Shown here: one piece after another, positions 1-4,848 of the stretch | Numbering within the stretch: the first letter of the stretch is position 1 | Layout of the letters: each line of letters begins with the position of its first letter | Virus record (IMG/VR): IMGVR_UViG_2617270960_000012 | Source of the DNA: a virus | Taxonomy: Duplodnaviria; Heunggongvirae; Uroviricota; Caudoviricetes | Reading direction: 5' to 3' (one strand) | Length of the DNA: 4,848 bases | Notes under the pieces: generated by a model | Databases searched by the model: none | What the model was told of the DNA's origin: nothing | The model's input: the letters and a program-made list of their open reading frames with translations, nothing else | Program-made: the position numbers and the translations under genes

Positions 1-504
1 TTATTGATAGTGTTTTATGTTCAGATAATGCCCGATGATTTTGTCATGCAGCTCCACCGATTTTGAGAACGACAGCGACTTCCGTCCCAGCCGTGCCAGG
101 TGCTGCCTCAGATTCAGGTTATGCCGCTCAATTCGCTGCGTATATCGCTTGCTGATTACGTGCAGCTTTCCCTTCAGGCGGGATTCATACAGCGGCCAGC
201 CATCCGTCATCCATATCACCACGTCAAAGGGTGACAGCAGGCTCATAAGACGCCCCAGCGTCGCCATAGTGCGTTCACCGAATACGTGCGCAACAACCGT
301 CTTCCGGAGCCTGTCATACGCGTAAAACAGCCAGCGCTGGCGCGATTTAGCCCCGACATAGCCCCACTGTTCGTCCATTTCCGCGCAGACGATGACGTCA
401 CTGCCCGGCTGTATGCGCGAGGTTACCGACTGCGGCCTGAGTTTTTTAAGTGACGTAAAATCATGTTGAGGCCAACGCCCATAATGCGGGCTGTTGCCCG
501 GCAT
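1..504 (-). CDS. insB: IS1 transposase InsB frame; normally expressed as an InsAB' fusion by -1 ribosomal frameshift
   Basis: The 167-aa ORF from the track matches IS1 InsB along its length (…[18 protein letters not shown]…[39 protein letters not shown]…). The stop codon is at the window edge (1-3 reverse complement). Confidence 0.9.
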
Positions 505-696
505 CCAACGCCATTCATGGCCATATCAATGATTTTCTGGTGCGTACCGGGTTGAGAAGCGGTGTAAGAACTGCAGTTGCCATGTTTTACGGCAGTGAGA
601 GCAGAGATAGCGCTGATGTCCGGCGATGCTTTTGCCGTTACGCACCACCCCGTCAGTAGCTGAACAGGAGGGACAGCTGATAGAAACAGAAGCCAC
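423..696 (-). pseudogene. insA: IS1 insA with an internal frameshift; the N-terminal zinc-finger part and the C-terminal HTH part are in different frames
   Basis: Translated from GTG at 696 (minus), the frame reads [43 protein letters not shown], then shifts and stops at 526-528. The InsA C-terminus ([33 protein letters not shown]…LKNSGRSR) appears only in another frame, fused to unrelated upstream sequence in the 423..725 track ORF. Compared with canonical IS1 as I recall it, this is a 2-bp deletion between window positions 568 and 569. The IS1 length in the window (751 + ~15) is also 2 bp short of 768. Confidence 0.6.
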
Positions 697-751
697 TGGA
701 GCACCTCAAAAACACCATCATACACTAAATCAGTAAGTTGGCAGCATCACC

Positions 752-967
752 CGCCTCTGCAAACGCTGCGACCCAATAAGCGAAATGCTTCGCTCATATA
801 AACCAGATGAACACACTAAGGACGCTATCGACTGGCTGGAAGATGATGACTGTGACTATCAGGAAAAAGCCGCTGAATGGTTCTGGGATGCAATAACCAA
901 AAGAGTTAAGGCTGAATATGCCTTCGCAATATTCAAACGCAGACACATTTTTGGAGAAGCAGCATGA
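752..967 (+). pseudogene. 3' remnant of a phage early gene truncated by the IS1 insertion; product unknown, possibly the partner of recT
   Basis: The frame of the 785..967 track ORF stays open with no stop back to the IS1 boundary at 752. There is no Shine-Dalgarno before the ATG at 785. Its TGA stop overlaps the recT ATG (ATGA at 964-967). Confidence 0.35.
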
Positions 968-1866
968 GCAATATCGTTGAATTCGTTAAACAGCAAGAGC
1001 AGTTATTCTGCGGAGCATTGACTGAACAGACGGTGACATGGGCTAAGGAAAGCCAGTTTGCAATTCAGTATTTCCAGAAAAATGATTACCTGGCTAAAAC
1101 GGCACTGGCAAATCCAACCAGCGCACAGAACGCCATCATCAATGTTGCGGCGATCGGCATCACCTTAAACCCGGCCAGCAAACTTGCTTATCTAGTTCCG
1201 CGCGACGGCATGGTTTGCCTTGATATCAGCTATATGGGATTACTTCACCTTGCACAGTCGACAGGATCAATTAAGTGGGGGCAATGCAAACTGGTGTACT
1301 CAAACGACACCTATGAATCAAACGGCCTTGATTCAGCACCAACCCACAAATACAACGCATTTGGTGAGCGAGGCTCTATTGTTGGTGGTTATTGCACGGT
1401 TAAAACAGCAGATGGTGACTACCTGACTGAAGAAATGAGTCTGGCAGAAATTAAAGCTGTGGAAGCAACGAGCAAGGCAAAGAATGGACCGTGGAAAACA
1501 TTCTGGGAAGAGATGGCGCGTAAAACAATAGTTAAACGCGCCAGCAAATACTGGCCTAAAGCCCAGCGACTGGATAATGCCATTCACCTGCTTAACGAAG
1601 ATGAAGGTATGCATCAGGAACCAGTTATGCCGCACAAATCAGAGGAAGATATACGCGAAGATGAACGGAAACGCCAGCAGGAAATAATGGATAAAGCACA
1701 ACTTCTTTGTGATGAAATGGCTCAAGCAGAAAACATGGATGATTTGAAGCGATATTTTGCAGAAGCATATCGCCTGACATCTGGAATGAAATTGCAGCAG
1801 AACGTACAAGCCATTTACGCAGAATGCAAAGCGAAACTGGAGGTTGCCAGTGAGCAAACTGTATGA
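964..1866 (+). CDS. recT: RecT-family single-strand annealing recombinase
   Basis: 300-aa ORF with GGAGA 6 nt upstream of ATG 964. The motif NGPWKTFWEEMARKTIVKRASKYWP matches the conserved core of E. coli RecT (NGPW..HWEEMAKKTAIRRLFKYLP). It carries a long charged C-terminal tail. Confidence 0.88.
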   Translation: MSNIVEFVKQQEQLFCGALTEQTVTWAKESQFAIQYFQKNDYLAKTALANPTSAQNAIINVAAIGITLNPASKLAYLVPRDGMVCLDISYMGLLHLAQSTGSIKWGQCKLVYSNDTYESNGLDSAPTHKYNAFGERGSIVGGYCTVKTADGDYLTEEMSLAEIKAVEATSKAKNGPWKTFWEEMARKTIVKRASKYWPKAQRLDNAIHLLNEDEGMHQEPVMPHKSEEDIREDERKRQQEIMDKAQLLCDEMAQAENMDDLKRYFAEAYRLTSGMKLQQNVQAIYAECKAKLEVASEQTV

Positions 1867-2332
1867 AATTGCCAATGAATACGCAAAATTGATGGATTCA
1901 GATTTAGAACCAGAGATGATTGCTGACACAATAGAAGGCATGGAAGGAGAATTTACCGATAAAATAGAGCAACTTCTTTCCGTCATTAAAAATGAATCTG
2001 GTTATGCCGAACGCCTCAAGGAAGAGGCAAAGTCACTGAATGAGCGAGCCACAGTAATTCAAAATAAGATTGACAGCATTATGGCGTATATAGCGTCATC
2101 GCTTGAAATGGTTGGCAAGAAAAAGATTCGAGCAGGTATTCACCAGGTAACAATCCGCAAACCGTCAGAAACTGTAGAAATCATCGACTCAAGCGCCCTT
2201 CCTCCTGAATACGTTGAGTTTGAAACGACAATTAAAGCCGACAAACTGGCAATCAAACACCAACTAAAAGCAGGAATAAATATCCCCGGCGCTCAACTCA
2301 AAGTTGGGAAACCTTCACTTCTTATCAAATAA
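1850..2332 (+). CDS. Siphovirus Gp157-family protein, commonly found next to phage recombinases
   Basis: The N-terminus (SKLYEIANEYAKLMDSDLEPEMIADTIEGMEGEFTDKIEQLLSVIKNE…) and the …VTIRKPSETVEIIDSSALPPEYVEFETTIKADKLAIKHQLKAG… region fit the Gp157 family pattern. Start is placed at GTG 1850 (GGAGG at 1839-1843, 6-nt spacer) rather than the track's TTG 1844. It overlaps the recT stop by 17 nt. Confidence 0.72.
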   Translation: MSKLYEIANEYAKLMDSDLEPEMIADTIEGMEGEFTDKIEQLLSVIKNESGYAERLKEEAKSLNERATVIQNKIDSIMAYIASSLEMVGKKKIRAGIHQVTIRKPSETVEIIDSSALPPEYVEFETTIKADKLAIKHQLKAGINIPGAQLKVGKPSLLIK

Positions 2333-2343
2333 CGGTATCGACT

Positions 2344-2658
2344 ATGAAAAAGACTCCATGGGAGAAATGGGAAGTCGATTTCTTGCGCGAAGTAGCGGCG
2401 ACAATGCCAGTTGAAGTTATCGCTGAAAAACTGGAAAGGACTGAAAAAGCAGTAATAGCAAAAGCAACAAGGATTGGCGCTGACATTGTTAGCCGACTTC
2501 GTGGAAGACGCTGGACAAGAGCCGAAGTATCACTTTTCGGTAAGTTCTCCGCAGAAGAAATAGCAATTGCAACCTGCCGCTCAATTTATTCAGTGAGAGC
2601 TATGCGATACAAGCTAAAAAAACTCGATGAAGAGAGAACAGGCATACGAATAAATTAA
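2344..2658 (+). CDS. Small protein with two tandem helix-turn-helix-like repeats (sigma-70 region 4 / Myb-like pattern); putative DNA-binding regulator
   Basis: 104-aa ORF with an internal duplication: [12 protein letters not shown]…[24 protein letters not shown] and [39 protein letters not shown]. No obvious Shine-Dalgarno before ATG 2344. Confidence 0.55.
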
Positions 2659-2674
2659 CAAAGAGGAATTTACC

Positions 2675-2842
2675 ATGAGAGGACTTGCATACAATCCCGG
2701 CATTCTTCCGGCAGAAATGATTATTCGCCAACGCGTAAAGCCAATGCCATCGAGAGAAGAATTGCTTAAGAGAAAGAGTTTCGGTTCTGTTAATGACAAC
2801 AAATATCTGAATGCGATGTGGCGCAAAGGAGGCAACCAGTGA
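2675..2842 (+). CDS. Small basic hypothetical protein (55 aa), not in the supplied ORF track
   Basis: ATG 2675 follows AAGAGGAA (2661-2668). Translation is [55 protein letters not shown]. Its TGA stop (2840-2842) overlaps the GTG start of the next gene (GTGA). Confidence 0.5.
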
Positions 2843-2843
2843 G
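2827..2843 (+). repeat. Copy 1 of an exact 17-bp direct repeat aggaggcaaccagtgag (Shine-Dalgarno plus GTG start module)
   Basis: Identical 17-mer at 2827-2843 and 3068-3084. It extends to 20 bp with one mismatch (t/c at 2844/3085). Confidence 0.85.
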
Positions 2844-3093
2844 TAATTCAGCACGACTACAGCTTGGTTTTTCACCGCTATCAAAAACTATCATGCTGGC
2901 AAAAATGCGCGATGTTGAAGGTGGACGTATGCGCGTTGGCAATGATCCAGGTCGTGATGTTACCAATGAGGCTGCTCAATTGGTGTGGCGACTGGTCATG
3001 GCTGAAGGTGGTGAGATCGCGTGGGAGCTGGATGATGGTTCTCGCATGGTGTTGAAGGCAGAAAAGCAGGAGGCAACCAGTGAGCAAGATTGA
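2839..3093 (+). CDS. Hypothetical small protein (84 aa)
   Basis: GTG 2839 follows AGGAGG (2827-2832, 6-nt spacer). Same frame as the track ORF 2818..3093. The gene body is flanked by two copies of an exact 17-bp repeat. It overlaps the next gene's start by 14 nt. Confidence 0.55.
3068..3084 (+). repeat. Copy 2 of the exact 17-bp direct repeat aggaggcaaccagtgag
   Basis: See copy 1. Spacing between copies is 241 bp. Each copy contains the ribosome-binding site and GTG start of the gene that follows it. Confidence 0.85.
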
Positions 3094-3793
3094 TTATCAG
3101 GCACTGCGTGCTAAGGCAGAAAAAGCAACGTGTGGTGTATGGTCGCTCGAATATGGAGAGAGCCGATTTGATGGTGATGATGCGCTAATTCATCGTGAAG
3201 TTGCTGGATATATTCCCATTTGCAGAATTGAAGGAGCGCATCCAGAAAGCGGTTTCGATGAAGATTTCCAAATGGAACAGCAGGCCAATGCTGAATTCAT
3301 CGCAGCAGCCAGTCCAGCTACCGTGCTGGCACTACTGGATGAACGGGAAAGAAACCAGCAATACATCAAACGCCGCGACCAGGAGAACGAGGATATTGCG
3401 CTTACGGTTGGGAGGCTGCGCGTTGAGCTGGAAGCAGCAAAAAAGCGCATAGCAGAACTGAAAGCCGAACCTGTAAGCCAAACTTACAAGTTGAACCAGC
3501 TATCGGGCAATTCTCCGGTAACTCCGGATGGTTGGATAAGCTGTAGTGAGCGGATGCCTGTAATTGGCGAGCTAAATTGGAGAACTAGTTTTCCTTTACT
3601 GGTTACGTGTGAGATCGGCGTTATACCTGCTTATTACGGCTTTGTGAGAGTTAATGGGAATAAGCATTATGGTTTTATGGAGAGTCTTAAATATGGAGAT
3701 GATAGCGGCAACCATCCTCAAACTAATGAATATGACCTGATTAGCAATGTAACCCACTGGAGCCGCTGCCAGAACCGCCGAGCAGGATGGTGA
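3080..3793 (+). CDS. Ea22-like prophage protein with a C-terminal DUF551-like domain
   Basis: 237-aa ORF starting at GTG 3080 after AGGAGG. The N-terminus [16 protein letters not shown] resembles Ead/Ea22-like proteins of enterobacterial prophages. A central coiled-coil-like stretch (RLRVELEAAKKRIAELKA) is followed by a C-terminus (GWISCSERMPV…NVTHW…) resembling DUF551. Confidence 0.65.
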   Translation: MSKIDYQALRAKAEKATCGVWSLEYGESRFDGDDALIHREVAGYIPICRIEGAHPESGFDEDFQMEQQANAEFIAAASPATVLALLDERERNQQYIKRRDQENEDIALTVGRLRVELEAAKKRIAELKAEPVSQTYKLNQLSGNSPVTPDGWISCSERMPVIGELNWRTSFPLLVTCEIGVIPAYYGFVRVNGNKHYGFMESLKYGDDSGNHPQTNEYDLISNVTHWSRCQNRRAGW

Positions 3794-3796
3794 ATA

Positions 3797-3883
3797 ATGC
3801 CGCCAGTTAAAGTTGTGATTATCACTTTGGTGATGATAGTGATTGCGAGAATCATGTCTGGTGAAATTGGGTGGATATGGTAA
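3797..3883 (+). CDS. Possible 28-aa hydrophobic micro-peptide with a single predicted transmembrane helix
   Basis: ATG 3797, translation MPPVKVVIITLVMIVIARIMSGEIGWIW, stop TAA 3881-3883. Only a weak AGGA lies 9 nt upstream. It sits directly after the Ea22-like stop codon. Confidence 0.25.
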   Translation: MPPVKVVIITLVMIVIARIMSGEIGWIW

Positions 3884-3946
3884 TGACCAAGGCAGCAGCA
3901 GAGCGCAACTAACAATCCTCGCACTGACGGGGATTTCTTTTATCTG

Positions 3947-3971
3947 AACTCGCTACGGCGAGTTTTGTTTT
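3947..3971 (+). terminator. Intrinsic (Rho-independent) terminator-like hairpin
   Basis: Perfect 7-bp stem aactcgc / gcgagtt with loop tacg, followed by the T-rich run ttgtttt. Confidence 0.5.
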
Positions 3972-3984
3972 ATGGAGATGATAA

Positions 3985-4152
3985 ATGCACTTCCGAGTCA
4001 CAGGTGAATGGAATGGAGAACCATTCAACAGAGTTATCGAAGCAGAGAACATCAACGACTGCTATGACCACTGGATGATATGGGCGCAGATAGCACATGC
4101 AGACGTAACCAATATTCGAATTGAAGAACTGAAAGAACACCAAGCCGCCTGA
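3985..4152 (+). CDS. Small acidic hypothetical protein (55 aa)
   Basis: ATG 3985 follows GGAGA (3974-3978, 6-nt spacer). Translation is MHFRVTGEWNGEPFNRVIEAENINDCYDHWMIWAQIAHADVTNIRIEELKEHQAA. Terminator-like hairpins lie on both sides. Confidence 0.55.
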   Translation: MHFRVTGEWNGEPFNRVIEAENINDCYDHWMIWAQIAHADVTNIRIEELKEHQAA

Positions 4153-4167
4153 TGGCGGTTTTTTATT
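4142..4167 (+). terminator. Intrinsic terminator-like hairpin overlapping the stop codon of the 55-aa gene
   Basis: Stem aagccgcc / ggcggttt (8 bp with one G-U pair), loop tgat, followed by ttttatt. Confidence 0.45.
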
Positions 4168-4178
4168 GGAGACAAGAA

Positions 4179-4523
4179 ATGTCAGATTTGGCTATGAAGG
4201 TTTTGAAATGGCAATCGACTGGCGATGTCGGCATCAGTAGCGCAACTCTTGCCTCAATCGCATGTGGCCTGAAAAAGAATATCTATGGTCATCACTTCGG
4301 CGCTCCGCATGACGCAGCCGATTTCCGACGATGCGTTGCACTTGTTGAGCAGATTCCAGAAATCAGAGATTCATTCGACAAGGTTGCAAAGCGCGTTCCG
4401 GCATTCAAAGGCATCCTCAACGAATGGGATTCCCTCGTCGCTCTGTTGAAGTCTGAAATGAAGATACACGGAAACAAAGCACCAGAGACTTACAGAAGAA
4501 TAAGCGAGTTACGCAATGACTAA
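4179..4523 (+). CDS. Hypothetical prophage protein (114 aa)
   Basis: ATG 4179 follows GGAGA (4166-4170). It is in the same frame as the track ORF 4152..4523, whose upstream ATG lies inside the terminator hairpin and is therefore less likely. No family recognised. Confidence 0.55.
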   Translation: MSDLAMKVLKWQSTGDVGISSATLASIACGLKKNIYGHHFGAPHDAADFRRCVALVEQIPEIRDSFDKVAKRVPAFKGILNEWDSLVALLKSEMKIHGNKAPETYRRISELRND

Positions 4524-4647
4524 CCACAGCCTCACACTCGATGAGGCCTGTTCATTTCTCAAGATATCCAGACCTACCATTGCTGCATCAATGCGGCTTT
4601 TTATTGCCTGATTTGCAGGTTCGATTCCATATTCGGAGATAGCACTC

Positions 4648-4848
4648 ATGCAACACGAACTACAACCTGATTCACTGGTTGATTTGAAATTCATCATGGC
4701 TGATACTGGCTTCGGTAAGACCTTCATCTATGACCGGATTAAGTCCGGCGACCTGCCTAAAGCCAAAGTTATCCACGGACGAGCAAGATGGTTATATCGT
4801 GACCATTGTGAATTCAAAAATAAGCTCTTAAGCCGCGCCAATGGGTAA
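4648..4848 (+). CDS. AlpA/Xis-family small helix-turn-helix protein; excisionase or transcriptional regulator
   Basis: 66-aa ORF with GGAGA 9 nt upstream. The core …FIMADTGFGKTFIYDRIKSGDLPKAKVIHGRARWLYRDHCEF… fits the AlpA/excisionase pattern (…TG.S.STIYR.I..G.FP.P..LG.R...W…). The stop codon is the last 3 bases of the window. Confidence 0.78.
   Translation: MQHELQPDSLVDLKFIMADTGFGKTFIYDRIKSGDLPKAKVIHGRARWLYRDHCEFKNKLLSRANG

Follow-up and report, generated by a model that had tools for sequence, protein, structure and literature searches.

We analysed 4,848 nucleotides of viral DNA (Caudoviricetes; IMG/VR record IMGVR_UViG_2617270960_000012), referred to here as the window, with a focus on the small gene orf55 and the terminator-like hairpins that surround it (Table 1). 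orf55 is read from an ATG that lies 7 nt downstream of a Shine-Dalgarno (SD) sequence, GGAG at 3974-3977, and the SD spacing is conserved for this gene. Its product has a mass of 6.5 kDa, an isoelectric point of 4.9 and a net charge of -6. A preliminary description of this DNA, made from the sequence alone, had noted the small gene with its good SD and the small, acidic character of the product, both of which we confirm. It had recognised no family for the protein, and this does not hold. Orf55 is identical over all 55 residues (100% amino acid identity, 55/55) to lambdap35 of phage lambda (NP_597778, 29118-29285, complement), and it matches the PHROG profile phrog_676 over its full length (E = 6.6e-40). 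Homologues with 92-100% identity are present in phages 434, HK022, HK140, HK630, the mEp phages, CUS-3 and many Shiga toxin (Stx) phages. Searches of Pfam (E <= 0.01), PADLOC and PDB sequences gave no match to Orf55.

Three hairpins with canonical terminator anatomy accompany the gene. Hairpin 1 (stem 3914-3935, -9.5 kcal/mol, z = -4.7) is followed by the tail TCTTTTATCT. Hairpin 2 has an 8-bp stem with a tetraloop (3946-3965, -11.9 kcal/mol, z = -4.2) and runs into TGTTTTATGG. Hairpin 3 (stem 4142-4161, about -13 kcal/mol, z = -3.6) overlaps the TGA stop codon of orf55 at 4150-4152 and ends in T6. All three have GC-rich 8-bp stems, loops of 4-6 nt, folding energies between -9.5 and -13 kcal/mol and at least 6 U in the 9-nt tail, and the z-scores of the hairpins, obtained by RNA folding against dinucleotide shuffles, span -3.6 to -4.8. 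The preliminary description had placed a hairpin with a T-run on either side of the gene, and both of these are present as described (hairpins 2 and 3). It missed hairpin 1 further upstream, so that the upstream element is in fact a tandem pair. A consensus scan of the whole window gave 13 terminator-like sites against 5.1 +/- 2.5 in shuffled sequences, and five of the six sites on the plus strand fall within 3914-4597. As two more hairpins follow ORF114 (Table 1), each gene of the orf55-ORF114 stretch, and not orf55 alone, is bracketed. A bidirectional function was considered and rejected, because the minus-strand tail of hairpin 3 is not sufficiently T-rich and the window has no convergent gene. 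A scan of the whole window against Rfam (E <= 1) found no RNA family, and hence no known small RNA or riboswitch in the hairpin region.

The conservation of these hairpins was followed in two samples of IMG/VR loci. The first was picked by protein similarity and is biased toward low nonsynonymous divergence (dN); the replacement sample was drawn by an exact match to hairpin 2, independently of the protein, and comprises 75 loci. Hairpin 1 is kept in most relatives, while in some it is swapped for another stem (AACCCGC-CGAGT-GCGGGTT or CCGC-TTAAT-GCGG) with the T-tail unchanged. The occurrence of unrelated stems before the same T-tail suggests selection on structure plus tail, which is a terminator signature. 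Hairpin 2 was found in 95% of the protein-selected relatives. Every intact orf55 that we examined is followed by a recognisable hairpin 3; in about a dozen loci its stem is weakened. Variation in hairpins 2 and 3 is slight across relatives, and the one-sided stem changes that do occur (U-G to U-A) preserve pairing. One of these distinguishes the window from lambda: in the stem of hairpin 2 the window has A for the G of lambda, and so a U-A instead of a U-G pair. By their anatomy and conservation, we classify the hairpins as putative intrinsic (rho-independent) terminators.

This arrangement of orf55 and flanking terminators is real, and it is already present in the literature and databases. 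Hairpin 1 is labelled tL4 in the GenBank entries M60848 (phage 434) and X51962 (HK022), the hairpin before xis is labelled t'I in M60848, and hairpin 3 is annotated as a rho-independent terminator in the HK140 record. Bloch (2014; PMC4195576, Table 4) reported that ARNold predicts all three lambda hairpins, as t3, t4 and t5. The tL4, ARNold and rho-independent-terminator labels are annotations or predictions, and literature searches on tL4 and on NP_597778 found nothing relevant.

Hairpin 1 (about 3913) is the exact point from which the window is homologous to the DNA of lambda, 434 and HK022, and the homology continues through hairpin 2, orf55 and hairpin 3. In lambda's exo-xis region, the same three hairpins (t3, t4 and t5) stand in equal order and at equal spacing around the identical protein. 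The two loci differ in what follows. Lambda hairpin 3, which by alignment lies at the position of 434 t'I, directly abuts the pI/cII box and xis, whereas in the window ORF114 and a pseudo-excisionase remnant intervene and the excisionase is of the TorI type. They also differ in setting, since the window element sits in a decayed prophage. The int-xis region of phage 434 (M60848) has the order tL4, ORF55, ORF114 and t'I as in the window, at about 96% nucleotide identity, and ORF114 follows the T-run of hairpin 3 in the window, 434 and HK022 alike. Beyond this point 434 goes on to a lambda-type pI-xis-int region, and the window goes on to torI and the host gene dsdC.

Table 1 Features of the window (positions counted from its first nucleotide).
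Feature	Position	Strand	Remarks
IS1 element (insA/insB)	~1-770	-	
5'-truncated open reading frame (ORF), phrog_3486	785-967	+	profile positions 43-102 of 102 left
RecT	964-1866	+	
Gp157	1844-2332	+	
104-aa protein	2344-2658	+	
DUF2737	2675-2842	+	
DUF7446	2839-3093	+	
Ead/Ea22 + DUF551 protein	3080-3793	+	
Hairpin 1 + T-rich tail	3914-3945	+	tL4 of 434/HK022, t3 of lambda; terminator scan, fold
Hairpin 2 + tail TTTTGTTTTAT	3946-3975	+	t4 of lambda; terminator scan, fold
Left bounding repeat of orf55 cassette, TTTTATGGAGA	3968-3978	+	contains SD GGAG
orf55 (lambdap35 / NP_597778; 434 ORF55; phrog_676)	3985-4152	+	55 aa, ATG start
Hairpin 3 + T6	4142-4167	+	t5 of lambda; terminator scan, fold, HK140 annotation
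Right bounding repeat, TTTTATTGGAGA	4161-4172	+	contains ORF114 SD (4168-4171), 7 nt before ATG
ORF114 (434 name; phrog_1229)	4179-4523	+	next cassette; function unknown; absent from lambda
Weaker hairpin after ORF114, inside excisionase-like remnant	4529-4547	+	-10.3 kcal/mol, z = -2.8
Hairpin + TTTTTATT, directly upstream of excisionase gene	4582-4606 (stem 4582-4597)	+	equivalent of 434 t'I
torI, KplE1-type excisionase	4648-4848	+	RefSeq annotation of identical locus in E. coli 1297KP; phrog_66

The genes that follow IS1 in the window form a lambdoid early-left set, all of them co-directional on the plus strand, and torI marks the prophage end, adjoining dsdC. A locus identical to the window is present in Escherichia coli 1297KP, where the gene order is argW, intS, an EpsG-family gene, a hypothetical gene, IS1, the truncated ORF, recT through orf55, ORF114, torI and dsdC; this locus is the KplE1/CPS-53 site. 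IS1 truncates the 5' end of the phrog_3486 gene, which RefSeq calls incomplete in 1297KP too, and separates the recT-torI block from the remaining prophage. In the window the module survives as a fossil, within a remnant of about 8 kb of a cryptic E. coli prophage; this remnant is of the KplE1/CPS-53 type, lies at argW and is cut by IS1. We found no repressor, pL, nutL or N in the ~8-kb remnant. Therefore, the antitermination reading given in the preliminary description is plausible for complete lambdoid phages, in keeping with established knowledge, but it cannot operate at the window copy. The KplE1/CPS-53 prophage of E. coli K-12 (argW...torI-dsdC) shares with the window the integration site, TorI, a ypdJ-like pseudo-excisionase remnant and a hairpin upstream of torI. 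Unlike the window, it has yfdP-yfdT upstream of torI and lacks orf55 and ORF114.

The hairpin-2 sample reveals how orf55 is inserted at this position. The gene follows hairpin 2 in 47 of the 75 loci and ORF114 follows directly in 14, with at least six other genes in the remainder (at least eight different genes in all), including a Zn-finger-like gene (product beginning MACSTF) and an excisionase-like gene (MQPINI). Upstream of the tandem-hairpin unit, about 20 unrelated contexts were seen. Homology breaks off immediately past TTTTATGGAG(A), that is, past the terminator tail and SD. This motif is found again behind hairpin 3, so that orf55 plus hairpin 3 is bounded on both sides by an 11-12 bp repeat of a T-run fused to an SD, TTTTAT(T)GGAGA, and phages without orf55 read from hairpin 2 through TTTTATGGAGA into CAAGAAATG of ORF114. 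Taken together, the break at the tail and SD, the recurrence of the motif and the orf55-less phages indicate that the mobile unit is orf55 plus hairpin 3. ORF114 itself starts at the ATG at 4179, not at the ATG at 4152. Hairpin 3 is followed in the 47 orf55 loci by lambda xis (20), a torI-type xis (14), ORF114 (10) or other genes (3). Arrays with any subset of the Zn-finger-like gene, orf55 and ORF114 were found, always in that order; a hairpin of its own is usual for orf55 and for ORF114, and occurs in some loci for the Zn-finger-like gene. The comparison of these loci shows that orf55 with hairpin 3 is a cassette whose presence does not depend on that of at least two neighbouring cassettes, and that the tandem-hairpin unit is a common junction among many upstream and downstream genes.

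The Zn-finger-like optional gene encodes a cysteine-rich protein of about 100 residues (MACSTFNPLTLQKYQ...CSLCGG...CLNC) and was seen in three IMG/VR loci (L110, L118 and L153). It is located 28-340 nt past hairpin 2, before orf55, ORF114 or torI, and is followed by its own hairpin in L118 and L153.

The orf55 family is narrow: an exhaustive HMMER search covering 1.84 billion representative proteins yielded only 53 clusters at 50% identity. Same-length homologues with only 35-51% identity occur in a Proteus phage, a Morganella phage and a bat-gut siphovirus, where they lie in the early-left operon between N and kil/exo and not beside xis. Within E. coli the module is very common: the three hairpins and orf55 are covered to at least 80% in 2181 of 5426 complete genomes (about 40%), with up to five copies per genome. 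Exact copies of lambda orf55 were also seen in assemblies assigned to Shewanella, Pseudomonas, Streptomyces-like, Bacillus-like, Bradyrhizobium and other organisms, on low-coverage contigs of about 48.5 kb or fragments. These are almost certainly contamination with lambda control DNA. The contig scan of public genomes returned almost only such lambda spike-in and was useless for assessing orf55 diversity.

The preliminary description had made its reading depend on conservation of the ORF as coding sequence, and the variation found is indeed biased toward synonymous sites. Among the 47 hairpin-2 loci with an intact orf55 there are 34 distinct alleles, for which the proportions of synonymous and nonsynonymous differences (pS and pN) are 0.104 and 0.024 (pN/pS = 0.23), and third codon positions hold 18 of the 35 polymorphic sites. 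In the protein-selected sample, polymorphic sites split 16:3:1 over codon positions 3:1:2. With these values, orf55 is a real coding gene under purifying selection. The contrary explanation, that the frame between the terminators is a spurious ORF in a non-coding spacer, can appeal to the very short length of the gene, to its annotation in lambda, which reads only 'Predicted by GeneMark', to the position of lambdap35 outside the lambda CRISPR interference (CRISPRi) essentiality map, and to a 1-nt deletion in codon 2 of the HK022 gene. We regard it as extremely improbable, since in addition to the bias in variation there are diverged homologues of the same length in other genera, a confident predicted fold and an SD at fixed spacing. 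The HK022 deletion (ATGC-CTTCC; X51962 at about 340-345, equivalent to window position 3988) puts the lambda-type start out of frame, and the tblastn match covers residues 3-55 only. Either the gene is truly inactivated in HK022, or an old sequencing error has been propagated to later genome records.

The window holds that end of a lambdoid early-left (pL-type) operon which is proximal to xis, and in it the lambda orf55 cassette lies between intrinsic-terminator hairpins; the arrangement is preserved here as a fossil, and we regard this reading as a whole as very likely. From upstream to downstream, RNA polymerase (RNAP) would meet the tandem hairpins (tL4/t3 and t4), the T-run fused to the SD, orf55, hairpin t5 over the stop codon, ORF114 with its hairpins, and finally the excisionase gene. 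N-type antitermination overrides terminators of this kind in the pL operon of complete lambdoid phages. By extension from lambda biology, only antitermination-modified RNAP coming from pL would pass the hairpins in a complete phage, and this would place orf55 among the delayed-early genes, produced alongside Xis. The hairpins would insulate the excisionase gene by stopping unmodified or stray transcription ahead of it. Expression of orf55 is probably tied to antiterminated pL transcription.

The preliminary description had called the arrangement a classic moron. In the full sense, this would be an autonomously expressed accessory gene that has a promoter and a terminator of its own and is active in the repressed prophage, to the benefit of the lysogen. 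Like the lambdoid morons of the Hendrix/Juhala concept, orf55 is a small accessory gene that has its own downstream terminator and is absent from some otherwise collinear relatives. Other features speak against a moron. A consensus scan found no plus-strand sigma-70-like site in 3884-3984, the stretch in which the preliminary description had proposed to look for a promoter (weak or activator-dependent promoters are outside the reach of such a scan). The GC content of orf55 (45.8%) is typical of its neighbourhood, with 40-50% in all neighbouring prophage genes. The gene is co-directional within an early-left operon and not in a late operon, and its distant homologues between N and kil/exo are in a typical early-lytic context. 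Moreover, the two terminators directly upstream remain when orf55 is absent, and hence belong to the junction and not to the gene. We therefore consider an autonomous moron very unlikely; orf55 can fairly be called a moron-like cassette that lacks a promoter, but not a classic moron. A different alternative is that the hairpins serve chiefly as recombination linkers or mRNA-stabilising stem-loops and not as working terminators. It would account for the tandem unit, at whose edges homology ends abruptly, being common to about 20 upstream and at least eight downstream contexts, and for the finding that lambda mRNA downstream of the predicted exo-xis terminators is lowered, not abolished (PMC4195576). 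While the linker and terminator roles are not mutually exclusive, we judge it unlikely that the former predominates, given the canonical terminator anatomy of all three hairpins (GC-rich 8-bp stems, 4-6 nt loops and U-tracts of at least 6 of 9) and the replacement of hairpin 1 in relatives by unrelated stems with the U-tail kept.

Remote-homology searches and structure prediction, which the preliminary description had put forward as a check, yielded a confident fold for Orf55 but only generic fold matches. The AlphaFold2 model, built on a 13-sequence alignment, has a predicted local distance difference test (pLDDT) score of 89.5 and a beta-beta-alpha-beta order of predicted elements (strand 2-9, strand 12-19, helix 23-36 and strand 41-49). 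Generic cellular folds outscore the small phage inhibitors among its matches. The positions conserved in the family (F3, T6, G7, W9, N10, F14, E19, E21, D25, H29, W33 and A34) amount to an aromatic core and, where the helix begins, an acidic EAED..D patch. We infer, weakly, that Orf55 most likely acts early in infection, as a small protein that binds or inhibits a host macromolecule stoichiometrically. As for the anti-defence role suggested in the preliminary description, the lack of a PADLOC match and the generic fold matches provide no evidence for or against it. In lambda, orf55 is dispensable for plaque formation as part of a deletion of the orf55-orf60a block (PMC12318184).

A more specific proposal was made by Donaldson (2021; PMC8614690), who modelled Orf55 with AlphaFold and RoseTTAFold and suggested, speculatively, an RNAP modulator like T7 Gp2, which binds the beta-prime jaw and sigma-70 region 1.1. 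Orf55 has no match to PF16857 (or to any Pfam family at E <= 0.01), though all Gp2 homologues carry this domain. In hhalign comparisons, the Orf55 family scored a probability of 2% against the single T7 Gp2 sequence and 0.7% against an 18-member Gp2 family profile; both alignments are in structural register, with 28% identity, despite these low probabilities. The jaw-binding arginines R56 and R58, P59 and the AGF...RVRP motif are invariant in the 18 Gp2 sequences and are not conserved in Orf55. Only R45 of Orf55 aligns with the Gp2 arginines, and distant relatives have E, V, H, N or D in its place. We rejected Gp2 homology as unsupported by profile comparison and residue conservation, and a Gp2-like inhibition of host RNAP seems quite unlikely. 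More generally, T7 Gp2 (PF16857), phi29 p56, AcrIE2 and T4 Dmd have no significant sequence or profile similarity to Orf55, in which their functional residues are not conserved.

Several points weigh against the overall interpretation. Termination and antitermination at these hairpins are read from sequence anatomy and database labels. Stem variation is low, and the covariation support consists of a few one-sided changes and the whole-stem replacements. Plus-strand terminators flank only one of the three distant homologues, and none were found around the genes of the Proteus and Morganella phages. As the distant homologues are mostly without flanking terminators, the bracket belongs to the E. 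coli xis-proximal locus and not to the gene family. The binder or inhibitor role is drawn from analogy to small acidic phage proteins of similar fold. Finally, the junction repeat may be conserved simply as a terminator tail plus SD, and not as a promoter of exchange. In a bolder proposal, the ~75-bp unit of tandem terminator, T-run and SD, together with the similar T-run/SD tails of the cassettes' own terminators, would act as a dedicated exchange junction by which lambdoid phages shuffle small early accessory genes at that end of the pL operon which adjoins xis, and Orf55 would target the host as an inhibitor, with RNAP, a repair enzyme or a defence protein as its candidate partner. We offer it tentatively, as possible but doubtful.

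The finding of orf55 among predicted terminators is a re-discovery of a catalogued piece of lambda, and its residual value is modest. The cassette picture is an elaboration of known principles and not a new kind of system. Orf55 is among the last lambda ORFs without an assigned function, is extremely widespread and is under purifying selection, and the only published functional idea, that of a Gp2-like RNAP modulator, fails the profile and residue-conservation tests. The terminator-delimited cassettes, the T-run/SD junction repeat and the independent variation of at least three cassettes in their presence are possibly useful for studies of lambdoid mosaicism and for searches for small inhibitors.

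Other observations concern the sequences on either side of the module. The ORF at 3080-3793 (plus strand, 237 aa, GTG start) combines an N-terminal Ead/Ea22 domain with a C-terminal DUF551 domain, and may be a fusion that arose by mosaic recombination; RefSeq has only a partial Ea22-like pseudogene at this position. Its stop codon overlaps the ATG of an unannotated ORF of 28 codons at 3797-3883 on the plus strand (ATGGTGAATAATG), which ends about 30 nt before hairpin 1. The predicted product is strongly hydrophobic (MPPVKVVIITLVMIVIARIMSGEIGWIW), possibly a small membrane peptide. No PHROG profile matches it, and the ORF lacks an annotation in phage E212 too, which has this stretch in common with the window.

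On the torI side, a 31-codon ORF at 4516-4611 (plus strand; MTNHSLTLDEACSFLKISRPTIAASMRLFIA) resembles the helix-turn-helix at the N-terminus of an AlpA/excisionase-type protein, and it aligns to the ypdJ region upstream of torI in the K-12 KplE1 prophage and to the ORF114-t'I stretch of phage 434. This ORF, which contains the 4529-4547 hairpin, is probably a pseudo-excisionase remnant. We also considered positions 4604-4616 as a cII box like that of lambda pI and rejected this, since the sequence is TTGC-N5-TTGC and the consensus spacing is N6 (TTGC-N6-TTGC); a pI promoter before torI would in any case be unexpected, because intS lies at the opposite end of the prophage. This plus-strand motif follows the t'I-like hairpin, and lambda has its TTGC-N6-TTGC cII box at the same position before xis. 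Positions 4604-4616 may represent what is left of a pI-type promoter, in a module whose integrase gene no longer lies downstream.

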